A stretch of DNA of 27,415 bases, taken from an uncultured Terriglobales bacterium. GTDB taxonomy: Bacteria; Acidobacteriota; Terriglobia; Terriglobales; Acidobacteriaceae. The notes beneath the pieces are model-generated. The model saw only the letters and a list, made by a program, of their open reading frames with translations. It had not been told where the DNA came from and did no database searches. This document shows positions 754 to 25,580 of this stretch, one piece after another. The position numbers and the translations under genes are program-made. The DNA lies in assembly GCA_964619235.1 (NCBI GenBank), contig CAZUCM010000002.1:1-27415 (forward strand), given 5' to 3'. Every line of letters starts with the position of its first letter. The first letter of the stretch is position 1.

Positions 754-1347
754 ATGCAGCGTAATTTGATCACTGCGGTGGTGACGGTAATTGCATGCTC
801 GATTATGACCCATGCCGGGTCGGTAAGCGGAGTTGTCAGGGCGGGTTCTCCGGGGTCGTCGATTGTATATCTTGAGTCGGCGAACGCATCCCCGCAGCCC
901 GTGGCGGTTACCTCAAAGCCGTACATCATGTCGCAACAGAGAATGAAATTCACGCCGCGAATCCTCGCGGTACCGGTGGGCGCAACCGTGGTCTTTAAGA
1001 ATGAAGATTCGCCGGCCCACAATGTTTTTTGGCCGTCGGTGGGAGGCGATAAAAAGCTGGCGCATAATCTGGGAACCTTCCTCAGCGGTCAACAGCGAAG
1101 TTACCAGTTCGACCATCCCGGAATCGCTCCACTTCTGTGCAATGTGCATCCGGAAATGGAAGGTTTCATCATTGTGAGCTCTACGCCCTACTATGCGGAG
1201 TCCGACGAGGTGTTAGGCCTCTACAAGATGGGAAATGTGCCGGACGGGCAATACAAGGCGATCGCCTGGCACGCCGGCAAAAAAATCGCCAGCAAGATCA
1301 TATCGGTGCATGGCGACGCAACCGTGGATTTTGACTTAACGCACTAA
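754..1347 (+). CDS. Secreted cupredoxin-domain protein with a C-terminal carboxypeptidase-regulatory-like beta domain
   Basis: AGGAG RBS at 740-744 and a signal peptide (..IMTHA). Type-1 copper ligand pattern HNV...CNVHPEM (His, Cys, His, Met). C-terminal NVPDGQYKAIAWH. Confidence 0.85.
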   Translation: MQRNLITAVVTVIACSIMTHAGSVSGVVRAGSPGSSIVYLESANASPQPVAVTSKPYIMSQQRMKFTPRILAVPVGATVVFKNEDSPAHNVFWPSVGGDKKLAHNLGTFLSGQQRSYQFDHPGIAPLLCNVHPEMEGFIIVSSTPYYAESDEVLGLYKMGNVPDGQYKAIAWHAGKKIASKIISVHGDATVDFDLTH

Positions 1348-6314: not shown

Positions 6315-6452
6315 TCGTAAAGTCCTGATCTTGATTTTACGATTTCGCAGGCATTCCGCGAACGCCGTTACAGGAAAACCCGCGGCTCCGGACTTTGCCG
6401 GCCTGAAGTGTGGACCTGACTTGCGGCATGCAAGAATGACCAAGTCGCCTTG

Positions 6453-6899
6453 ATGATGCTGAAGATTACGGAAACCGAGTTGGATAATCTGCGCCGCCAC
6501 GCCGAGGAGAGCTATCCGCAAGAGTGTTGCGGCGTGCTGGTGGGCGCAATCGGCGAGGGGACGAAAGCCGTGCACGCGGTGATCCGCTGCCGGAACACGC
6601 GCACCGACTCGCCGCGCAACCGCTACAACATCGATCCGCGGGAGCTGATTCGCATACGGCGGGAGGCGGCGGCGTGTGGCCGGGAGATTGTTGGGTTCTA
6701 CCATTCGCATCCCGACGAGGCTGCGCGCTGGTCGACCACCGACCTCGCCGAAGCTTATTGGACCGGATTCTCCTATGTCATCACCGCCGTAGAGCGAGGA
6801 AAGGCGGTCGAGACCCGCTCATTCGAACTGCAGGGCGAGGAATCGAACAAACATTTCGAAGATGAAACCATAGAAGTTGCCGGGACATCAAACCCTTGA
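6453..6899 (+). CDS. JAB/Mov34 (M67) metallopeptidase, Mec-like
   Basis: JAMM motif E(CCG)...YHSHPD...WSTTD. Confidence 0.92.
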   Translation: MMLKITETELDNLRRHAEESYPQECCGVLVGAIGEGTKAVHAVIRCRNTRTDSPRNRYNIDPRELIRIRREAAACGREIVGFYHSHPDEAARWSTTDLAEAYWTGFSYVITAVERGKAVETRSFELQGEESNKHFEDETIEVAGTSNP

Positions 6900-7003
6900 C
6901 GGCGCAGGAAAGCTGATGGCGGAAAATGTTGCCTGAGGACCGCCGCATGAGAAGAGCTCAAATTGAAATTCCTGATGCCTACTCTTTTTCAGGAGACCTA
7001 TCA

Positions 7004-7378
7004 ATGATCGACCGCCAAGGCATGGGAGGCAGTCGTGGAGAAGCCGGCTCGCCGGCCATTACGATTCCCGAGATCCAACCCGAGGAACTTAAGAGCCAGC
7101 TCGACGCCGGCACGGATCTGTTTGTGCTTGATGTCCGCGAGCCTCAGGAATACAAGATCTGCAACCTCGGCGGTTACCTGATTCCCTTAGGCGAACTGCC
7201 CCGGCGCATTCATGAACTCGATGCCGGCAGGGAAACGGTGGTGCACTGCCATAGCGGAGCACGTAGCGCCATGGCCGTCGAGTTTCTGCTGCAAGCCGGT
7301 TTCCGCAAGGTCAGGAACTTGAAAGGCGGAATCCTCGCGTGGTCGGAAAAAGTCGACCCCAGCCTGCCCAGGTACTAG
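7004..7378 (+). CDS. Single-domain rhodanese (sulfurtransferase) resembling the C-terminal domain of MoeZ/MoeB-rhodanese fusions
   Basis: AGGAG RBS at 6991-6995. LDVREPQEY, active-site loop HCHSGARS, and NLKGGILAWSEKVDPSLPRY. Confidence 0.9.
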   Translation: MIDRQGMGGSRGEAGSPAITIPEIQPEELKSQLDAGTDLFVLDVREPQEYKICNLGGYLIPLGELPRRIHELDAGRETVVHCHSGARSAMAVEFLLQAGFRKVRNLKGGILAWSEKVDPSLPRY

Positions 7379-13484: not shown

Positions 13485-14576
13485 CTAGTCTCCCGGCATC
13501 GGGTGTTTGGCCTCATCGGCGTGAGGCACCAGTTCCATGTACAGCGCCCGCGGCACGGGAGTGTTCCAATGTGCCGCGGCCTTCGCATAGCCGACGATAC
13601 CCAGGAACAGTACCGCTATGGCCGCGGCGATGGCCCAGGCAGGAATCCTCACGGCACACATTCGCGGCACTCGCGGCAGCGACATTTGCAAGGCGTCCTT
13701 TGCCGGACAGACCGCGACACATTCCATGCAGCCGGTGCATTCGGCGGATTGCACGGTCACCAACTGTTGAACCGGCAGCAGCGAAGGGCAAGCCTTCGAG
13801 CAAATCCCGCAATCGATGCAAGCCGAGGCGTTGCGGCGGATGCTTGCCGGGCTGAACAACGCAGCCAGTCCCAGCAACGCGCCATATGGACAGGCATACC
13901 TGCACCAGAAATTCTGCAGGAACAGGGATGCGCCGGCCAGCAGGCTTAACACGATGAACCCGATTGTGCCCATGTGGCGGAAGAAATTGAGCATCTTTAC
14001 GTCCGCAATGGTCCCATACGGGCTACTCAGAAAGGCCGCAATGGAGGCCGGGGACATCGTTGCCACTGCCCAGATAAAGAAACCGAGCAACAAATACTTC
14101 AGTCCGCGCAGAGGCAGGTCAACTAAACGGGGCAGTTGAAACGTGCGGCGGAACAGCTTGCGGCCCGTGCGCCAAAAATATTCCGAAATTGTGCCGATCG
14201 GGCATAACCAGCTGCAAAACGTCTTGCGCAACAAAAACGCCATGGCCAGAAATGCCAGCAGCAGGAACATTCCGGCGGGGTGTACGGCCGGAACCTGACC
14301 GGTCATCAGCCAGTACTTAAGATTCATCATGGCCGCGATCGGCAGCCAGCCCTCAACGCCCGCCGGCCGCGCCACGGAACTGGGGCGGCCCGTCTCGAAT
14401 TGCCGCACCCACAGGTAGAAGACTTCGCCTAGGTAAAGGTTGAGCAGCAGGAACCCCAGTTGAAAGCCGTGGCGTAGTGCCTGGGAGTAGTCGTGCCGGG
14501 TTTGCCGCACGAACCTTCGTTTCCGCTCGCCCTCCGCGATTGAGCCGGGCACCCGGCTGGCAGGTATGCTCTTCAC
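13485..14576 (-). CDS. yccM: YccM-like membrane 4Fe-4S protein (NapH/polyferredoxin superfamily)
   Basis: GVEGWLPIAAMMNLKY, FCSWLCPIGT and WCRYACPYG (CxxxCP motifs), plus two CxxCxxCxxxCP clusters. Closely matches E. coli YccM as recalled. The GTG start is uncertain. Confidence 0.88.
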   Translation of the reverse strand: MKSIPASRVPGSIAEGERKRRFVRQTRHDYSQALRHGFQLGFLLLNLYLGEVFYLWVRQFETGRPSSVARPAGVEGWLPIAAMMNLKYWLMTGQVPAVHPAGMFLLLAFLAMAFLLRKTFCSWLCPIGTISEYFWRTGRKLFRRTFQLPRLVDLPLRGLKYLLLGFFIWAVATMSPASIAAFLSSPYGTIADVKMLNFFRHMGTIGFIVLSLLAGASLFLQNFWCRYACPYGALLGLAALFSPASIRRNASACIDCGICSKACPSLLPVQQLVTVQSAECTGCMECVAVCPAKDALQMSLPRVPRMCAVRIPAWAIAAAIAVLFLGIVGYAKAAAHWNTPVPRALYMELVPHADEAKHPMPGD

Positions 14577-17056: not shown

Positions 17057-17320
17057 ATGTACAAATGGATGCCCATCATTGACGAAAGCAGCTGCACAGG
17101 CTGTGGTTTATGTATCGCAGCCTGCGGTCCGAGGTCGCTGGCGCTGGCTGACGGGATTGCAGAACTCACTCTGCCCGATACCTGCGGAAGCGAGGAACAC
17201 TGCATATCGGTTTGTGCATCTGGCGCTATTCAAATGGCGTGGTTGCCTTTTACCGGAAACAGAAAAGTCGGGAAATGGAGGAACGGAACGCAAGGCGCGG
17301 CCGTCTGTTATCCGGGCTAA
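17057..17320 (+). CDS. Small dicluster ferredoxin with one atypical cluster motif
   Basis: CTGCGLCIAAC (canonical) and CGSEEHCISVC (second Cys replaced by Glu). Starts 8 nt after the GATase stop. Confidence 0.88.
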   Translation: MYKWMPIIDESSCTGCGLCIAACGPRSLALADGIAELTLPDTCGSEEHCISVCASGAIQMAWLPFTGNRKVGKWRNGTQGAAVCYPG

Positions 17321-17455: not shown

Positions 17456-19693
17456 ATGGCCATGGAAGCTATTGATAGAAGTTCTTCCAACCGGCACTTG
17501 GCTTTGGGCACGGTTTCCTTTACCGTCTGCTTTGCCGCCTGGGGTATGATTAGCGCTTTCGCCCCTCGTTTCAGGCAGCAATTACACCTCTCAGCCACGC
17601 AAACTGCCTTGCTGATTGCAGTTCCCGTATTGCTTGGCGCCTTGGCTCGCATTCCGATGGGTATGCTGACGGACCGGTTCGGCGGGCGGCTGGTTTTTTC
17701 CGCGCTAATGTTCTTTACCGCGCTGCCTTTGGTCTGTGTGCCCTTCGCGGTATCGTATCGGAGCTTATTGTTCGCCGCTTTCTTCCTGGGCCTGGCTGGC
17801 TCTTCCTTTGCCATCGGCATTGGATATGTTTCGCGCTGGTTTCCCATGGAGCGCCAAGGAAGCGCACTCGGCGTGTATGGACTGGGTAACATTGGGCAGT
17901 CCGCGGCGGTGTTCCTGGGCCCGGTGCTGGCGGCGGGCTTCGGCTTCCGGCGCGTTTATTGGGGATTAGCCGCGATCCTCGTCGCATGGGGAATCGCTTT
18001 TGCGATCTCTGCCCGCAACGTTTCCGGCGGTGTGCGCCCGAAAAGCGTCGGCGAAATGCTCTCTGTGCTGGCCCACGAGCGATTGTCCTGGGCATTGTCG
18101 GCCTTCTATTTCCTGACCTTCGGTGGATTTGTCGCTTTCTCCATCTACCTGCCGAGTCTGCTCAAGGACCAGTTCGGCTTGCGCCCCGCGGACGCCGGCT
18201 TCCGAACCGCCGGATTTGTGGTGCTGGCGACACTTTGCCGGCCGCTGGGCGGTTGGCTGTCCGATCACATTGGCGGGTCGCGGGTGCTGTCCTGGACCTT
18301 TCTGGGAATTGCGGGTTTTGCTTTGCTGCTGGCTTCGCCCACCATGCTCTCCTTTACCGTCGGAGCCCTGGGCTGCGCCGCTCTGCTGGGGATCGGCAAT
18401 GGAGCGGTATTTCAACTCGTTCCACGGTATTTCCCTGACCAGCGGGCGACGGTGACCGGCTTGGTCGGTGCCATGGGAGGTATGGGTGGATTCTTTCCAC
18501 CTCTATTGTTGGGCGCCTTTCGTGATCGTCTGGGCGTGGTATGGCCAGGGTTTCTTTTGCTCTCCGCCACTGCTGGCTTTCTGTGGTGGCTGAATCTGCG
18601 CGTCTTCCTGCCCCGGGAAGAAAAGCTGGAGAGATTGCTTCCTCCCAGCTTCCGGCGCACTGGCGACCGTCTCCGCGCCGGAGCGATTGCCACCTTGTGG
18701 ACCGGCGTTCTGATCGCGGCCATATTCGTGGGCTCGCGCAATCTGCAAAACTTTGATCCGGCGCTGGTGATCTATACCTTTGCGGTAGTCTTCGCCACCT
18801 GGGGCGTTATTTATCACTACGCTGTCTGGATTCAGAAGCCTCCCACGCGTATCTATTGGGAACGCGGATGGCAGCTCTTCCGGCAACAAGGAGTCTTCCA
18901 CAGCCTATGGCGCGTGATCGCGCTGGCGGGGACCCACTTGTTCGGGCAAACCTTTATTGCCAGGCGCTCGCTCACACGCTGGGCGATGCATCAATTGCTG
19001 TTCTGGGGCTGCCTGCTGGCGGCAGCCATCACTTTTCCTCTGGTTTTTGGATGGATTCACTTCACCAGCGCGCCTGACGATCAGATGATTTACATTGTGC
19101 ATCTGTTCGGATTTCCGGCCGGCCGCTTCCATCTCCACACGATTACCGCCGCCCTGCTCTTTCATGGACTCGATATTTCCGCCTTCCTCGTGCTAGGCGG
19201 AATTGCGCTCTCCCTGTGGCGCCGCATGCGGGACGAAGGCGCCATAGCGGTGCAGAGCCTGGCAATGGACTTCTTTCCGCTGATTTTGCTATTTGCGATC
19301 TCCGTGACCGGGTTGGCGCTAACCGTGTCACAGGAATGGCTGCGGGGAAGCTTCTATTCTTTCTTGGCGATTCTGCACGCCATCACGGTAATCACAGCTC
19401 TGCTGTATTTGCCGTTCGGCAAGTTCTTCCATATTTTTCAGCGCCCGGCACAACTTGGCGTAAAACTCTATCAGGAGACCGGCGAACGCGGCACAGGCGC
19501 GGTTTGCCGGCGCTGCGGGGAACGCTTTGCCTCGCGCATGCATATCGACGATTTGGAACAGGTCCTGCCCCAGGTTGGTTTTGATTACCGCATGCCCGGC
19601 CCGGCGGAACATTGGCAGGAATTATGCCCGGCCTGCAAGCGCAAGTCCCTCTCGCTGGCGCAACTCAAATTGAAAGAGGACGCGAATGGCTAA
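17456..19693 (+). CDS. Fusion of a NarK-type nitrate/nitrite MFS transporter (aa ~1-385) and a NarI-like cytochrome b membrane domain with a C-terminal CxxC/CxxC motif (aa ~400-745)
   Basis: NarK features: R65 (LARIPMG), R262 (CRPLGGWLSD), nitrate-signature-like GLAGSSF and GIGNGAVF, and FGGFVAF. Second domain: RWAMH512 and LH641...LPFGKFFH659 (18-residue His spacing as in NarI H187/H205), C684xxC687 and C724xxC727. Confidence 0.9.
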   Translation: MAMEAIDRSSSNRHLALGTVSFTVCFAAWGMISAFAPRFRQQLHLSATQTALLIAVPVLLGALARIPMGMLTDRFGGRLVFSALMFFTALPLVCVPFAVSYRSLLFAAFFLGLAGSSFAIGIGYVSRWFPMERQGSALGVYGLGNIGQSAAVFLGPVLAAGFGFRRVYWGLAAILVAWGIAFAISARNVSGGVRPKSVGEMLSVLAHERLSWALSAFYFLTFGGFVAFSIYLPSLLKDQFGLRPADAGFRTAGFVVLATLCRPLGGWLSDHIGGSRVLSWTFLGIAGFALLLASPTMLSFTVGALGCAALLGIGNGAVFQLVPRYFPDQRATVTGLVGAMGGMGGFFPPLLLGAFRDRLGVVWPGFLLLSATAGFLWWLNLRVFLPREEKLERLLPPSFRRTGDRLRAGAIATLWTGVLIAAIFVGSRNLQNFDPALVIYTFAVVFATWGVIYHYAVWIQKPPTRIYWERGWQLFRQQGVFHSLWRVIALAGTHLFGQTFIARRSLTRWAMHQLLFWGCLLAAAITFPLVFGWIHFTSAPDDQMIYIVHLFGFPAGRFHLHTITAALLFHGLDISAFLVLGGIALSLWRRMRDEGAIAVQSLAMDFFPLILLFAISVTGLALTVSQEWLRGSFYSFLAILHAITVITALLYLPFGKFFHIFQRPAQLGVKLYQETGERGTGAVCRRCGERFASRMHIDDLEQVLPQVGFDYRMPGPAEHWQELCPACKRKSLSLAQLKLKEDANG

Positions 19694-21923
19694 GCCTCCA
19701 GCTTCCTTAGAAGCCCTGAAGACGCAGTTCGGGCCTACGTTGAATTACCTTCCGCCCGGCGGCTGGAAAGACGAAGCGGTTCACGCGCCCGACAAACTCG
19801 TAAAAACTCACTGCTGCTTTTGTGGCCAGCAATGCGGCATTCAGCTGAAGGTGCGGGGAAACAAAATCATTGGCTTTGAACCCTGGGAAGATTTTCCGTT
19901 CAATCACGGCATGCTTTGTCCCAAGGGGGTTAAGCGCTACTTGCAGAGCGATCACCCGGACCGGCTGCTTCATCCGCTCATGCGCACGGATCATGGATTT
20001 CGGCAGGCCAACTGGGAAGAAGCATTGGAATTCACCGCACGCCGCATGCGTGAGATCCAGGCAAAGCATGGCAAAGACGCGGTTGCCGTTTTCGGAGGCG
20101 CATCGCTATCTACCGAAAAGTCCTACCTGATGGGAAAGTTCGCGCGTCTGGCAGTGGGCACCCGGCATATCGATTACAACGGACGCTTGTGCATGGTCTC
20201 GGCCGGTACCGCGTACAAATTGGCGTTCGGGATCGATCGCAGCACCATACCGTGGAGTGACATTCTCAAGGCGGAAGTCTTGTTCGTCATCGGCGCCAAC
20301 ATCGGCGATTGCGCTCCCATCACTACCGACTACGTCTGGCGCGCCCGCGATCAGGGCGCGCGCCTTGTGGTGGCCGATCCCCGCATGACCCCCATTACAC
20401 GCAATGCGGACCTGTATTTGCCTCTGCGGCCCGGCACCGATCTGGTGCTCCTGATGAGCATCCTGCACGTAATTCTGCTCGAAGGCCTGGAGGATCGCGA
20501 CTTCATCGATCGCTACACCACCGGCTTTGCCGCGGTGGCGGAGTCGGTCAATGCCTACGATCCGGTCACTGCCGCCCAGCAGACCGGCGTTCCCCCGGAG
20601 TCCATCGAGAAGGCGGCGCGCTGGATCGGCAAGTCCCGGCGGGTGGTATTCCTGCATGCGCGCGGCCTGGAACACCAGTCGAAGGGCGTGGAAAATTGCC
20701 TTGCGGTCATAAACATTGCACTGGCAACGGGAAATCTCGGGCACGAGGGCTCCGGGCCGACGATGATTACCGGCCAGGGAAATGGACAGGGCGGCCGCGA
20801 GCATGGACAAAAGTGCGATCAGCTTCCGGGGCAGCGATCGCTTACCGACCCGGCGGCGCGCGAGCACGTTGCGCGCGTCTGGGGAATCAATCCGGACGAC
20901 CTTCCGCAACCCGGCTACACTGCGCCCGAGATCATGGAGGCGATTCATCGCGGCGAGATCAAGGCGCTGCTTTCCACTTGCTTCAATCCGTTGGTTTCGC
21001 TTCCTGACGCGAACTTCACCCGCGAGGCGTTGTCGCGGCTGGAGTTCCTGGGTGTGATCGATTTCTTTATGTCGGAAACCGCGCACCATGCCGACGTCGT
21101 GCTCGCGGGCAGTTTGCACGAAGAGGAAGATGGCTTAGGCTGTAGCACCGAAGGACGGGTGATCCATTGGAAAAAATCCGTCGATCCACCCGGCGAGGCC
21201 CGCCGCGATTCGGACATCCTGGTGGATTTGGCCCGCCGTTTGGGGAAAGGTCAGTATTTTCCCTTCGAGAAGCCGGCGGAAATTCTGGAAGAACTGCGCG
21301 AAGCTTCGCGCGGCGGGGTGGCTGACTATTACGGCATCACCTACGAGAAGGTGGACAAAATGAAGGGCGTCTTCTGGCCATGTCCGGCGCTGGAGCATCC
21401 GGGGACGCCACGCCTGTTCGAAGGGATGAAATTTCCTACCAGTGACGGGAAGGCGCACTTCCAACTTACAGAATGGCGGCCATCGGGCGATCCCGTGGAT
21501 GCACACTATCCCATCTACCTGACCACCGGACGCGTGGTGAGCCAGTATTTGTCGGGTACCCAAACTCGACGGATTGGTGCTCTCGTAGAGCAATATCCCG
21601 AGCCGCGGGCGGAGGTGCATCCCCGTTTGGCGGAGCAGTTTGGCATCAAGGATGGGGACTGGGTGACGGTTGAGAGCCGTCGCGACAAGCTCACGCTGCA
21701 AGCGATGGTGGTGAAAACCATTCGCCCGGACACCGTCTTCATTCCATATCACTGGCCGGGCATTCGCAGCGCCAATCGTTTGACGCATCGCACGCTCGAT
21801 CCACGCAGTAAGATCCCGGAATTCAAGGTCTCAGCATGCCGCATCGCCAAGGCAACCGGATTGGAGGCCGCCGCTGACGATCGTGCCCCGGAACACAGCG
21901 GCGCCGGGCAAGGAGCGAAGTAG
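19686..21923 (+). CDS. Cytoplasmic bis-MGD molybdoenzyme of the NasA/NapA nitrate reductase clade
   Basis: N-terminal [4Fe-4S] ligands C43/C46/C50/C78 with LCPKG. Mo ligand in NGRLC169M170 (Cys-Met as in Nap/Nas, not Cys-His as in FDH). [11 protein letters not shown] and [17 protein letters not shown]. No Tat leader. Confidence 0.9.
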
Positions 21924-22519
21924 TGTTCGGATACGAATTCTACGTTGATCCCTCCCGCTGTATCGGTTGCCGCTCATGCCTGCAGGCCTGCGAGGAGTGC
22001 GAAACGCATCGCGGCAAGTCGATGATCAACTTTGACTTTATCGAGCGCAGCGACAACATCTACTCCTCAGCTTACGTCTGCTGGCACTGCGACGAACCCA
22101 CCTGCGCGCAGGTCTGCCCGGCGGATGCCATCAAGAAAGGCGAGGATGGGATCGTTCATTCCTCACTGAAGCCCCGCTGCATCGCCTGTAACAACTGCGT
22201 GCTGGCCTGTCCCTTCGGGATTCCCAAAATGATGATTCCCGAGCAGCAGATGATGAAATGCGATATGTGCTACGATCGCACCTCCGTGGGCAAGCGTCCC
22301 ATGTGCGCTACTGTCTGCCCCAGCCAGGCTCTGGCCTATGTGAGGCCCGAGGAGATCAGGCCCCGCCGTGAAAAGCCGGTCAATATCTTTTATTTCGGAA
22401 GTCAGAAGATTACCACCAAGGTGTACATGATGGCCCCCGCCGAGCGCGATGCGATCGCGCTCGACGTGGTCGATTATATGTGGGAGGACAACCGTGAACT
22501 GGCTACGGCGCGCGAGTAG
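21923..22519 (+). CDS. Four-cluster 4Fe-4S electron transfer subunit (DmsB/NrfC/HycB-like)
   Basis: [37 protein letters not shown] and CDMC...CATVCP give 16 ligand Cys. The GTG start overlaps the upstream TAG. Confidence 0.93.
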
Positions 22520-23003
22520 CGAACCCTTATGGAAAGACGAATTCTCCGTCCACACCGCCGATGAGCGCTATGTGTCTCGCCGGCAGATGACGAAATTCCT
22601 CGTGCTCACCAGCTTCGGCATGTTCGTGGGGAATGTCTTGATTCTGGTTCGCTCCTTCTTTCACCACCCACGGCAATATCCTGAGTTGGACCTGGGGCAC
22701 ATTGGGGAGATTCCGGTGGGTGGGGTGAAATTGTTCGGATATCCCAGCGAGAGGGATCGCTGTATCCTGGTGCGCACCGCCGAGGCTTCCTATGCGGCCT
22801 ATAGCCAGAAATGCACACATCTGTCGTGCGCAGTGTACTACTCCAAATCCAGCAATCGGCTGGAATGCCCTTGCCATAATGGCGCCTTCTCGATCACCGA
22901 CGGATCGCCGCTGCAAGGCCCACCCCGGCGTCCCTTGCCCAGGGTGGTGCTGGACGAACGAGGTGGGGAACTGGTTGCTGTCGGCTTGAGAGGAGAACCA
23001 TGA
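22494..23003 (+). CDS. Membrane-anchored Rieske [2Fe-2S] protein with a twin-arginine motif
   Basis: GGAGG RBS before the GTG at 22494. SRRQMTKF followed by a TM helix. Box I CTHLSC and box [10 protein letters not shown], then GPPRRPL. Confidence 0.92.
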
Positions 23004-23248
23004 GTGAACTTTCCAAGCTGCCGCCACAAACCCGTGGGCTGATTGCTATCACAGGCGCCATGTCACTGATCGCTGTGCTTCTCATACTGCAAATTTATCT
23101 GTTGAGTGCCGCATTGGAGGCCTTTCTTGCTGGCGACATGCGCGCCGCTCTGCCGGCAGCAGTCTTTTCCGGCATTATATTTCTGGCTTCTCTCGGCTTA
23201 TCGTTGTTCGTGGACAGGGTCGACGCTGAAGCGCATCGCGACATCTAA
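23000..23248 (+). CDS. Small two-TM membrane protein, last gene of the operon (possibly DUF6755-like; from memory, unverified)
   Basis: ATGA overlap with the Rieske gene and a GGAG RBS. Two hydrophobic helices flank LEAFLAGD. Confidence 0.8.
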   Translation: MSELSKLPPQTRGLIAITGAMSLIAVLLILQIYLLSAALEAFLAGDMRAALPAAVFSGIIFLASLGLSLFVDRVDAEAHRDI

Positions 23249-23573: not shown

Positions 23574-25580
23574 CTACGAGTTGGACACGGGAAACTGCGC
23601 CCGCAGTATGTTGGTCATTGCCGGGCTCAGCTGCTTAAACAGTTCCGCGTTATACGATGCGCAATACGGAACTCCGGAAACCGCCCCGTACTCGATACTT
23701 GGATCCGCGGTGCCGTCCTGCGGCCGCGTGGGATCCATCGTATCGACCGGGAAGACGCCATATGCCTTCGGAACATTGAGATTATTCTGCGTTAAATTGT
23801 TTTGTACGATCTGTTGCGTCGCGATTGAATAAGAACGGGAGGTCGCCGCCGGCGTACCTTCCGCAACCGCCGGATCCACGTTGGTGGCTACGATGGAAAT
23901 CGTGTAATCGCTGTTCAGGTAGATCTCGAAGGTGCGGAATTGCTGCGGAAAATCCCTGAGTGACGAGGTTTCGACCTGCCAGAAGCCGCTTTGCGGCCCC
24001 CCACTTGCCGTTGGCGGAAACGCTTTCACCGTGTTGAGATGACGGTGTCCGGCAATCCACATCAGCAGATTGGGAGTGTTTTGCAGCGTGGCAACCAGAT
24101 TCGTCAGGGAGACGGCATTCTGTTCGGTTGCGTTGGGGTCCTTGGCGGACTCCCACCATTCCATTTCGCATCCGATATTGCCGACGGCGATCGGCACATG
24201 GGCGGCGATGATCATGAGCTGATTGGCGGCCTGGCCGGCAGCCAGTTCCGCCTGCAGCCATCCCCACCGCGTCGCATCGAGGAATCCATGCCCGTGAATA
24301 TCGTGGGAGCCGTCGGTTTCCGACTGCGTGTCGTCAAGCACGATGACCTTGAGCGGAATATCCGACTTGGGAACGAAACTATAACAGGCAAAGCCGCTTC
24401 CCATCGATGGGTCGACCAGGTTCAGACCATGACCAACCGGAGAGGTGGTGGTGGTGAAGAATTCCTGGATCCAATCGGTTCTCAGGAGGGGACGGCGATT
24501 CGGATCGGCGGCCACCGTTGGAGGCGTGCTGAAGTTCGCCACCGGCCCAGCGTCTTTGATACTGCCGTCAGGAGTCGAACCGTCGATTACGCCCATGTAA
24601 TAAGACTGTTCTTGCAGGCTGGCGGAGGTATCAAACAGGCAGGGAAACGTCTTCATGGAATTTGGGTTTACCAGATCCCCTGCCGCCCAAACCGTGTCGG
24701 CGGTGAATGCCGGTTGAAGATTGAGCGCCGGTCCGGCATTGACGGGAACGCTGCCCAGCCAGAAATGATCGTGGTTGCCCATCACCTGATACCAGGGGAT
24801 CAACCGGTTGAGGCCGGCGGCCTGAAAGGGCTTTTGATAGTCGATCGAGGTCGCTCCCAGATGGGCGCCCGAGCTGGGAGTGATCATTTTGCCGTCGATG
24901 ACGTCAATATACCAGCGTAGCTCGTTATATTGAGTGTTGTTGCAGGTATCGCCCAGAGAGATCCCGAAATCGAACGGCGTTTGCTTGTGCAGGGCATTGA
25001 CCGTCTGAATGGCGGCGTCAAGAACATGGGTCGTATACGGCATAATCGGCGAGTATAAGGACGTCATGGGCGCCCCATATACCGGATCCAGCTGTTGCGC
25101 ATAGATCAGCTGATTCGGAGCTTCCTTGTCGGTGATGTGGGTGTCGGTGAACGCGAAGAAGTTCACCAGCCGTTGCAGCCGGACGGGCGCCGGGTTGCTA
25201 TAACCGGAGGGCATGAGGTCGAAGCGCTGAACCAGTGCCAGGGGTCCACCGTAGGAGTAGTTGCCGTAACCATATTTTCCGTATTGGGAAACCAGCGGAA
25301 GCTCGGTCGGGAATAGCCCCGTGCCCGAGTTGGGAGCGGAAGGTTTCACCGGCATGGGAAACGACAGCACCCGCTGCGCGGTGGTCGCGACCGTGGAATC
25401 AATCGGGTAGGCGGCGGCCGAAGCGTTTCCGCCGCATCCGGTAGTCAAAGCGTTTAGGTAAAGACAGGCAGCCGTCCCCGCCGAATACTTGAAGAACTCG
25501 CGGCGCGTCACGCCGTGTACCATTTTCAAATCGTCGCTGCTCAAGATGGACGTGCGCTGTTTTGAATCGCTATCACCCAT
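23574..25580 (-). CDS. Tat-exported calcineurin-like metallophosphoesterase lipoprotein (resembles the TIGR03768 family)
   Basis: Tat motif TRREFFK and lipobox-like TTGC. Metallophosphoesterase motifs DTH, GDTCNN, GNHDH, AAHVP and GHRH. Confidence 0.88.
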   Translation of the reverse strand: MGDSDSKQRTSILSSDDLKMVHGVTRREFFKYSAGTAACLYLNALTTGCGGNASAAAYPIDSTVATTAQRVLSFPMPVKPSAPNSGTGLFPTELPLVSQYGKYGYGNYSYGGPLALVQRFDLMPSGYSNPAPVRLQRLVNFFAFTDTHITDKEAPNQLIYAQQLDPVYGAPMTSLYSPIMPYTTHVLDAAIQTVNALHKQTPFDFGISLGDTCNNTQYNELRWYIDVIDGKMITPSSGAHLGATSIDYQKPFQAAGLNRLIPWYQVMGNHDHFWLGSVPVNAGPALNLQPAFTADTVWAAGDLVNPNSMKTFPCLFDTSASLQEQSYYMGVIDGSTPDGSIKDAGPVANFSTPPTVAADPNRRPLLRTDWIQEFFTTTTSPVGHGLNLVDPSMGSGFACYSFVPKSDIPLKVIVLDDTQSETDGSHDIHGHGFLDATRWGWLQAELAAGQAANQLMIIAAHVPIAVGNIGCEMEWWESAKDPNATEQNAVSLTNLVATLQNTPNLLMWIAGHRHLNTVKAFPPTASGGPQSGFWQVETSSLRDFPQQFRTFEIYLNSDYTISIVATNVDPAVAEGTPAATSRSYSIATQQIVQNNLTQNNLNVPKAYGVFPVDTMDPTRPQDGTADPSIEYGAVSGVPYCASYNAELFKQLSPAMTNILRAQFPVSNS

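Follow-up and report, generated by a model that had tools for sequence, protein, structure and literature searches.

The 27,415-nt window analyzed here covers positions 1 to 27,415 of contig CAZUCM010000002.1 (assembly GCA_964619235.1) from an uncultured Terriglobales bacterium of the Acidobacteriaceae. At positions 17456-23248, it carries a five-gene cassette (g1 to g5) that appears to encode a nitrate reductase. Our preferred reading, held with modest confidence, is that the products form a membrane-bound quinol:nitrate oxidoreductase that is wired like Nar and has its active site on the cytoplasmic side. The evidence is all in silico. It consists of the domain identities and cofactor ligands of the products, the absence of export signals from the catalytic subunit (g2) and the iron-sulfur (FeS) subunit (g3), a twin-arginine translocation (Tat) signal-anchor on a Rieske protein (g4), the conservation of the cassette, and its separation from the nirBD nitrite reductase genes. 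These features suggest, with less certainty, which path the electrons take, that a quinol donates them, how the system is oriented, and what physiological role it has.

The five open reading frames (ORFs) are co-directional on the forward strand and are joined by four overlapping junctions, as the initial annotation had described. The first gene, g1 (17456-19693), overlaps g2 by 8 nt (ATGGCTAA). The stop codon of g2 (19686-21923) and the start codon of g3 share base 21923 (TAGTG), g3 (21923-22519) overlaps g4 by 26 nt, and g4 (22494-23003) is joined to g5 (23000-23248), the last gene of the cassette, through an ATGA overlap at 23000-23003. A Shine-Dalgarno-like purine run precedes each of the five starts. 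The best start for g4 is the GTG at 22494, which has the Shine-Dalgarno sequence GGGAGGA ahead of it and aligns with a Met in the homologs. The products had been described as a NarK-cytochrome b fusion, a molybdenum (Mo) enzyme without a Tat signal, a four-cluster FeS protein, a Tat-dependent Rieske protein, and a small membrane protein. These identities held, with the refinement that the cytochrome b domain appears to be of the NarI type.

The cassette is well conserved. A neighborhood survey of the kind proposed in the initial annotation, based on 83 related loci fetched for gene-order comparison, found the order of the major facilitator superfamily (MFS)-cytochrome b fusion, Mo, FeS, Rieske, and DUF6755 genes to be collinear in 83/83 loci wherever the contig allows, with variable flanks. 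This recurrence is far beyond chance. The fusion of NarK and cytochrome b is present in 80 of these loci, and the other three are cut at a contig end. Unfused versions were found in Blastocatellia, Planctomycetota, cultured Deinococcus, and Brevibacillus. The Blastocatellia operon has the order membrane protein, Mo, FeS, Rieske, DUF6755, and MFS. In four cultured Deinococcus strains, the operon is located on megaplasmids, has a NarK/NasA transporter gene in the last position, and encodes a Mo subunit with 60% identity; thus, in the Blastocatellia and Deinococcus versions, a separate narK gene lies within the operon. The version in Brevibacillus laterosporus has no DUF6755 gene and is accompanied by a divergent Crp/Fnr gene and an adjacent MFS gene. 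Taken together, a NarK transporter is fused or adjacent in every version of the cassette.

The distribution is broad. Relatives of the Mo subunit at 74-89% identity number in the thousands, come mostly from soil metagenomes and acidobacterial metagenome-assembled genomes (MAGs), and are annotated as "assimilatory nitrate reductase." When one genome per GTDB species was scanned, more than 581 species showed the clade-specific motifs. The carriers belong mainly to Terriglobia, Bryobacterales, Vicinamibacteria, and Thermoanaerobaculia, together with a scattering of MAGs from other phyla and one isolate, Paludibaculum fermentans.

The catalytic subunit g2 (745 aa) contains the Molybdop_Fe4S4, Molybdopterin, and Molydop_binding domains and is a NasC-type molybdenum-bis(pyranopterin guanine dinucleotide) (Mo-bisPGD) protein. 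Its best model is NasC (NF047855; E = 4e-230), at 765.7 bits and below the equivalog cutoff of 1100. Other models scored 589 bits (cytoplasmic Fdh-alpha), 241 bits (NapA; cutoffs 904-930), 147.7 bits (AioA, TIGR02693; cutoff 359), and 48.7 bits (NarG, TIGR01580; cutoff 1084). The FS0 [4Fe-4S] motif has four Cys (C44-x-C46-x3-C50...C78), and Cys169 (codon 20190-20192) serves as the Mo ligand and precedes Met170 (R-L-C169-M), a pairing shared with Nas and Nap enzymes. No twin-arginine motif was found in residues 1-40 of any cassette Mo subunit, while the Rhodobacter NapA control shows MTLTRRDLIK. Instead, the Mo subunits share a conserved N-terminal extension of approximately 40 residues with invariant G16, P17, Y21, G25, G26, and W27, and the cassette clade carries a motif of its own.

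A neighbor-joining tree with 200 bootstraps, which carries out the phylogenetic check suggested in the initial annotation, placed the cassette-linked Mo subunits in one monophyletic group (98% bootstrap). This clade is sister to the NirBD-linked NasC of Paenibacillus, Skermanella, Mycobacterium, Streptantibioticus, and Deinococcus grandis (100% for the union), and the proteobacterial NasA, FdhF, and NapA fall outside that union. The initial annotation had described the system as matching none of Nar, Nap, or Nas. This description stands for the architecture but not for the Mo subunit, which clearly belongs to the NasC family, where it forms a sister clade. The genes from Rhodococcus pNit (L103) and a Gloeothece plasmid (L098) were dropped as NarB/Nas references, as they have Cys-Thr at the ligand position and cluster apart. 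Given this residue pair and a clade separate from Nas, Nap, and Fdh, their annotation as nitrate reductases may be wrong.

In the PDB, the proteins closest in sequence to g2 are FdhF-type formate dehydrogenases (FDHs). An FDH identity was nevertheless rejected. FdhF has C/U-H at the Mo-ligand position, whereas g2 has Cys-Met, so that the FDH His is replaced by Met, and the FDH Arg before GQ is replaced by Thr. In addition, the nitrate-reductase signatures are present, with the Arg of GGREHG in g2 aligned to the Arg of the REVG motif in NasA and NapA, and NarK is linked in every case. A broader version of this idea is that the system is not a nitrate reductase in vivo at all. It may run in reverse as a nitrite-oxidizing enzyme or act on another oxyanion (chlorate or selenate), with the Rieske protein as electron donor to a high-potential chain in the periplasm, or it may use another substrate such as formate. 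Mo enzymes that have a Rieske partner are typically oxidases such as Aio, and substrate specificity is not readable from sequence with certainty. However, beyond the residue replacements and the universal association with NarK, the low-potential signature of the Rieske protein fits menaquinol chemistry rather than nitrite oxidation, and the neighboring genes point to nitrite and nitric oxide (NO) stress. We consider this explanation very improbable.

The N-terminal domain of g1 (17456-18640; residues 1 to approximately 395) is a NarK/NNP-family MFS nitrate/nitrite transporter with approximately 12 hydrophobic helices (TIGR00886, 1.7e-70 over residues 13-345; PF07690, 2.6e-45). The C-terminal domain (18656-19693) has 345 residues and six helices and resembles the cytochrome b-like membrane proteins of the NarI/HdrE/QmoC superfamily. 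Its matches to NarI, QmoC, DsrM, and TcuB are weak, and the best NCBIfam models are QmoC, DsrM, and TcuB. When a profile of 28 diverse family members was compared with all PDB sequences, E. coli NarI was the sole significant match (E = 7e-5). In this alignment, the invariant H641 and H659, which are 18 residues apart, correspond to NarI His187 and His205, which we take to be the ligands of hemes bD and bP in transmembrane helix 5 (TM5) of the NarGHI structure. H512, H641, and H659 are invariant in the 28 homologs, with H512 at the cytoplasmic start of the third helix; the position equivalent to NarI H66 is Ala in g1. The candidate heme ligands are His512 with His659 on the cytoplasmic side and His641 with His570 on the outer side. 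Neither g1 nor the rest of the window gave a Pfam match to a bc-type cytochrome b (PF00033/PF00032 or PF13631). These results give weak but specific support for a NarI-type rather than a bc1-type cytochrome b.

Two cytoplasmic elements of g1 are conserved, namely a loop in the membrane domain and a CxxC...CxxC tail (Cys684, 687, 724, and 727). With 12 MFS helices followed by six more, this Cys-rich C-terminal tail should be cytoplasmic. A periplasmic beta-hairpin at approximately residues 533-560 is also conserved and lacks a NarI counterpart. The membrane domain also exists on its own, as an abundant protein of 350-390 aa that falls into 1175 clusters at 50% identity and into more than 7700 at 90%, has no Pfam domain, and always has the Mo gene next downstream. 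In public annotation, the stand-alone subunit is often labeled as an "MFS transporter" without having an MFS domain, as seen in D. wulumuqiensis (WP_114673479.1; L089 7889-9001), a second locus (L090), and the Blastocatellia proteins P0273, P0275, and P0292; this label was probably propagated from the fused acidobacterial form. Also in Deinococcus, a conserved hypothetical ORF of 65 aa with no family match overlaps the start of the membrane-subunit gene (L089 7699-7896 and L090 7699-7896).

The third gene, g3, encodes a 198-aa electron-transfer subunit of the DmsB/FdnH/PsrB/NarH class with a Fer4_11 domain (PF13247, 1.8e-18). The closest models are DmsB (1.3e-28) and FdnH, and the PDB matches are FdnH, PsrB, HycB, and NarH; the score against the NarH model TIGR01660 is 30.4 bits (cutoff 524). 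The protein has 16 Cys in four [4Fe-4S] motifs, and all 16 are kept in 87 sequences. It has no membrane helix, and neither a signal peptide nor a twin-arginine motif was found in the N-termini of any homolog of this subunit.

The fourth gene, g4, encodes a membrane-anchored Rieske [2Fe-2S] protein (PF00355, 2.4e-10). Its best NCBIfam models are QcrA, PetC, and AioB, with no NirD-type match, and its PDB matches are limited to the Rieske proteins of bc1, b6f, and AioB. The match to the AioB small-subunit model TIGR02694 (7e-9) extends over almost the entire domain at 35.6 bits (cutoff 95.65). The N-terminus consists of a conserved cytoplasmic peptide (PLWKDEFSV) and a twin-arginine signal-anchor, of which the motif RR[QD][FLMY]xKF[LM] and a hydrophobic helix are invariant in approximately 85 homologs, including those of Blastocatellia and Deinococcus. 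The Brevibacillus protein has DRRGFMK followed by a hydrophobic stretch. The cluster boxes CTHLSC...CPCHNGAF are conserved, together with the disulfide Cys pair of the bc1, b6f, and AioB Rieske proteins. The presence of Gly and Phe at two potential-tuning positions, which has been used to predict a low-potential Rieske center (PMC3509893), suggests that g4 has such a center. Among the plasmids in our collection, this Rieske type was found only with the cassette. Finally, g5 encodes a small DUF6755 membrane protein (PF20540, 1.1e-9) with two predicted helices and no cofactor motif. A DUF6755 gene follows the Rieske gene in 78/83 loci and also in Deinococcus and Blastocatellia.

For nitrite reduction, nirBD was found within 10 kb in only one of 90 cassette loci searched (1.68 Mb in total). 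In that locus (L013), the genes are approximately 7 kb off, on the other strand, and outside the operon. In comparison, the four closest non-cassette NasC relatives (38-46% identity) are all beside nirB, three of them also beside a small soluble nirD, and all have narK nearby. An ordinary Nas operon was rejected as an identity for the cassette because it lacks nirBD and diaphorase genes and encodes membrane subunits. The initial annotation had noted that the operon has no gene for a nitrite reductase, a NarJ/TorD chaperone, or a diaphorase, and none of these was found in the 27-kb window. NarJ is also absent from the recurrent neighbors of the 83 loci, although whole genomes were not searched. 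The genes that do recur near these loci encode a RIC/YtfE di-iron repair protein (33/83 loci), a Crp/Fnr-class regulator without the FNR Cys cluster (29/83), NnrS (20/83), a hemerythrin (12/83), a NapH-like protein (10/83), a DUF438-hemerythrin-PAS protein (7/83), and YwiC (6/83). Nitrogen-regulation genes (PII, NtrC/NasT-type, glnA, and amtB) are not recurrent near the cassette. Furthermore, Deinococcus wulumuqiensis NEB 479 has both the cassette and a complete nasA-MFS-cobA/nirB-nirD-hemD cluster, located 215 kb off on the same replicon. In this strain, DVJ83_RS17030 is the Mo gene of the cassette and DVJ83_RS18275 is the canonical nasA.

In the mechanism that we propose, the di-heme, NarI-type cytochrome b domain of g1 would oxidize menaquinol at its outer face, and the two hemes would carry electrons across the membrane. 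The electrons would then pass through the cytoplasmic four-cluster subunit g3 and the [4Fe-4S] center of g2 to the Cys-ligated Mo-bisPGD. The fused NarK domain would import nitrate, g2 would reduce it to nitrite, and nitrite would exit through the same transporter, such that the redox loop would conserve energy as in Nar. To our knowledge, all characterized relatives of NarI, HdrE, DsrM, and QmoC hand electrons to cytoplasmic partners. A Nar-like loop is suggested by this precedent, the homology of the subunits, the lack of export signals on g2 and g3, the cytoplasmic elements of g1, and the universal presence of the transporter. The low-potential Rieske head of g4 and the DUF6755 protein would be located on the outer face beside the quinol site. 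We tentatively assign them to a Qo-like quinol-oxidizing site, possibly next to heme bD and with the Rieske protein perhaps docked on the g1 beta-hairpin, or to a branch that leads to periplasmic partners. Thermus NarC provides an analogy for a branch to periplasmic acceptors. Because nirBD is near only one of 90 cassette loci and beside all four of the closest non-cassette NasC genes, the gene context suggests that the system is not assimilatory. Its role is probably dissimilatory, in the form of nitrate respiration or redox dumping at low oxygen, with nitrite and NO as by-products.

Several observations weigh against this proposal. For the membrane domain, the PF02665 (NarI) score is 19.3 bits (cutoff 22.9), and fold-level confirmation failed, as an AlphaFold2 model (pLDDT 79) gave no structural match in Foldseek. 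Only three His are invariant across the family and the fourth candidate, H570, is either His or Asn, and thus the second heme is uncertain. For regulation, FNR/Dnr boxes (TTGAT-N4-ATCAA, at most one mismatch) were found within 300 nt upstream in only 1/75 loci, and those within 4 kb are about as frequent as expected (4 in 67 loci versus 3.2). Sigma-54 promoters are likewise at the expected level (8/75 loci versus 7.8), and neither a common 8-mer nor any other conserved motif was found upstream. In addition, a cluster look-up of close homologs returned only MAGs and did not tie the cassette to a named acidobacterial isolate that reduces nitrate to nitrite, such as Granulicella mallensis or strain KBS 96. 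A further conflict concerns topology. Given its Tat signal-anchor, the Rieske head of g4 should sit outside the cytoplasmic membrane, whereas the proposed active site is inside, and for this reason the orientation and the electron path given here are tentative. The outward-facing Rieske protein is unexplained by the model, and the cassette contains no partner for it. The initial annotation had wired the catalytic subunit to the quinone pool on the cytoplasmic side. This part is in line with the signal-less g2 and g3, the alignment with NarI His187 and His205, and the constant presence of NarK, but the paradox of the outward Rieske protein was left unaddressed.

The topological paradox would be resolved by joint export, in which the Mo, FeS, and Rieske subunits assemble in the cytoplasm and then cross the membrane together on the Tat signal of the Rieske protein, a form of hitch-hiking as for AioA on AioB. 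The result would be an outward-facing anchored nitrate reductase similar to archaeal pNar, and NarK would import nitrite or have another role. AioA has no signal of its own, the signal-anchor on the Rieske protein is invariant, and g4 matches both the AioB model and AioB structures. Moreover, the haloarchaeal Nar is outward-facing and is genetically coupled to a Rieske/cytochrome b module (PMC3509893). However, a nitrate transporter, which would be needless for an outward-facing enzyme, is fused or adjacent in every version, and both a loop and a Cys-rich tail of the g1 membrane domain are conserved on the cytoplasmic side, in keeping with the cytoplasmic partners that its characterized relatives feed. 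We know of no precedent for Tat hitch-hiking of a three-subunit module of approximately 125 kDa on a membrane anchor. In the Gram-positive Brevibacillus, such a module would end outside the cell, and the RIC/YtfE neighbors indicate nitrosative damage in the cytoplasm. Joint export is thus an unlikely explanation, and the Nar-like arrangement with a cytoplasmic active site is preferred.

A different alternative keeps the enzyme and its orientation but assigns it to assimilation, as a quinol-driven cytoplasmic nitrate reductase whose nitrite is converted to ammonium by a NirBD or NirA from another part of the genome. In the tree, genuine NirBD-coupled NasC proteins are the sister group of the Mo subunit, annotation pipelines label this subunit as assimilatory, one locus in 90 does have nirBD at approximately 7 kb, and numerous carriers are aerobic soil heterotrophs. 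Heylen and Keltjens (2012; PMC3475470) described a nasC of Bacillus bataviensis that is linked to genes for an FeS protein and "another Rieske-type" protein. They proposed an "alternative, yet functional assimilatory" system; their remark is silent on a membrane subunit and on topology. This is the sole nasC in that genome, and nirBD is found elsewhere. NO-detoxification genes are reported to be clustered with a truly assimilatory NasC in Bradyrhizobium (PMC4724949), such that gene context does not exclude assimilation. Nevertheless, nirBD and nirA are unlinked in 89/90 loci, in contrast to the constant linkage of the nearest non-cassette NasC genes, and nitrogen-regulation genes do not recur nearby. 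D. wulumuqiensis already owns a full canonical Nas cluster, and a membrane redox loop with four extra redox subunits would be an unusual investment for assimilation. We regard an assimilatory role as rather unlikely, although somewhat less so than joint export. The suggestion in the initial annotation that the enzyme serves respiration or redox balancing is favored by the rarity of linked nirBD and by the co-occurrence of both systems in D. wulumuqiensis, with the assimilatory role proposed for the Bacillus version as a less likely alternative.

One acidobacterial MAG (MFD04570.bin.1.1) has two copies of the cassette on separate contigs (L008 and L013). The fused cassette is also present, at 69-79% identity, in MAGs labeled as Dormibacterota, Verrucomicrobiota, Limnocylindrales, Polyangia, and Obscuribacterales (L024, L032, L036, L055, L059, L063, L075, L076, L081, and L082). 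The three of these in the tree (L059, L075, and L081) nest within the acidobacterial clade. In these cases, the entire cassette may have been transferred horizontally, or the contigs may have been binned wrongly. In a Phycisphaerales MAG (L087 10001-13410), only the membrane and Mo genes are present, followed by a SLFN-like helicase and a Y1 transposase, and this operon may have been cut down by a mobile element.

Other genes in the window have looser or no apparent connections to the cassette. A small 2x[4Fe-4S] ferredoxin gene (17057-17320, forward strand) is located 135 nt upstream of g1. This gene is near the cassette in only 2/83 loci and is therefore probably not part of the system; it was rejected as a member, as was an upstream GATase gene (1/83 loci). 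Approximately 3 kb upstream and on the opposite strand, a gene at 13485-14576 encodes a NapH/MauN/NosR-like membrane ferredoxin-type protein (Fer4_5), and the recurrence of this family near the cassette makes a loose functional link possible. Convergent with the operon, the gene at 23574-25580 (reverse strand) has a 668-aa product that carries a Tat-like signal (RREFFK) and matches a metallophosphoesterase weakly. Farther away, adjoining forward-strand genes at 6450-6899 and 6926-7378 encode JAB/MPN-domain and rhodanese-domain proteins, a pairing typical of sulfur-carrier protein systems. A small cupredoxin gene of the plastocyanin/azurin family (754-1347, forward strand), 16 kb from the cassette, encodes a conceivable periplasmic redox partner, but this gene is not kept near the cassette in other genomes. 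No Rfam families were found in the window, and neither a sigma-70-like promoter nor an enriched terminator was found.

The textbook classes of nitrate reductase are Nar, Nap, and Nas, together with the eukaryotic enzyme. Our searches of the literature on Acidobacteria, Deinococcus, Rieske proteins, and novel or non-canonical nitrate reductases found no description of this architecture, barring the 2012 remark on Bacillus, and no paper on DUF6755. Like the initial annotation, we found no biochemical characterization. The interpretation given in that annotation is plausible and, from the sequence comparisons, now better supported, although unproven. The cassette is widespread, systematically mis-annotated, and uncharacterized. 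A bolder possibility, which we put forward tentatively and would not bet on, is that it represents a fourth, widespread class, namely an energy-conserving menaquinol:nitrate oxidoreductase in which a NasC-type subunit is mounted on a NarI-like cytochrome b and an outward Rieske protein makes a Qo-like, possibly bifurcating or branching, quinol site. Such a class may be the missing nitrate-to-nitrite enzyme of Acidobacteria, Deinococcus, and some Firmicutes, and many nasA counts in soil metagenomes would then be dissimilatory.

Environmental nitrogen-cycle fluxes are inferred from counts of nitrate reductase marker genes. The cassette occurs in at least hundreds of species of a very abundant soil phylum and is uniformly annotated as assimilatory nasA. 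If its role is respiratory or redox-balancing, such counts overestimate assimilatory capacity in soils and peatlands and underestimate dissimilatory nitrate reduction, from which nitrite, NO, and N2O precursors arise. Reduction of nitrate to nitrite was reported for Granulicella mallensis and strain KBS 96, which have neither Nar nor Nap, only nasA-type genes (Eichorst et al.; PMC5900883), and more nitrate-reducing strains of subdivision 1 have been listed (Kielak et al.; PMC4885859). Our reading, if true, would account for such phenotypes in Acidobacteria without Nar and Nap. In addition, the combination of a NarI-type cytochrome b and a Tat-dependent Rieske protein is a new pairing of two much-studied quinol-oxidizing modules. 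The question is directly testable because culturable carriers are available, namely Deinococcus wulumuqiensis, Brevibacillus laterosporus, and Paludibaculum fermentans.

Among known systems, NarGHI with NarK (as in E. coli and Paracoccus) follows the same overall logic as the cassette, which has a putative heme b anchor of the NarI superfamily with two TM5-type His, a four-cluster FeS protein, a signal-less Mo-bisPGD enzyme of predicted cytoplasmic location, and coupling to NarK. However, the cassette has a 745-aa Cys-ligated NasC-type catalytic subunit rather than an Asp-ligated NarG of approximately 1240 aa, and a 198-aa DmsB/FdnH-like FeS protein with four complete Cys motifs rather than a 512-aa NarH. 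It lacks a NarJ gene, adds the Tat-dependent Rieske protein and DUF6755, and has a six-helix anchor with an extra periplasmic beta-hairpin, a Cys-rich tail, and the NarK fusion. The NasC/NasA/NarB systems (NasC-NirBD of Firmicutes and Actinobacteria; NasC-NasB-NasG of Paracoccus) have catalytic subunits of the same family, to which the cassette clade is sister (38-46% identity, with DYNGR[LF]CM). These systems are also cytoplasmic as judged from signals and linked to NarK, and some of them use a Rieske protein (NasG/NirD). They differ in having NADH- or ferredoxin-linked partners and a nitrite reductase in the operon, both absent from the cassette, for which the quinone pool of the membrane is the predicted electron source. 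Moreover, the cassette Rieske protein is a Tat-anchored bc1/AioB type rather than the small soluble NirD/NasG type, and the Mo subunit has the 40-residue N-terminal extension and the clade-specific motif. In contrast to Nap, the cassette Mo subunit has no Tat signal, and NapB/NapC, NapGH, and NapD are absent from the cassette.

Outside these classes, the HdrDE, DsrMK, QmoABC, and TcuB modules have, as predicted for the cassette, a NarI-like membrane cytochrome b that feeds quinol electrons to a cytoplasmic FeS partner, but this partner is CCG-domain or HdrC-like rather than a complex iron-sulfur molybdoenzyme (CISM)-type pair of FeS and Mo subunits, and no Rieske protein is involved. AioAB resembles the cassette in pairing a signal-less Mo-bisPGD subunit with a Tat-signal Rieske protein of the same subclass. 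However, it is a periplasmic oxidase without a four-cluster subunit, cytochrome b anchor, or transporter, and AioA has a [3Fe-4S] cluster (three Cys) and no protein ligand to Mo, whereas g2 has four FS0 Cys and Cys169. Finally, the haloarchaeal Rieske/cytochrome b-NarGH (pNar; PMC3509893) is the only described nitrate reductase whose genes are coupled to those of a Rieske protein and a b-type cytochrome, and its Rieske center is likewise predicted to be of low potential (Gly/Phe). In pNar, the cytochrome b is of the bc1 type, and the outward NarG-type subunit has its own Tat signal and needs no NarK, whereas the cassette has a putative NarI-type cytochrome b and a signal-less NasC-type catalytic subunit.

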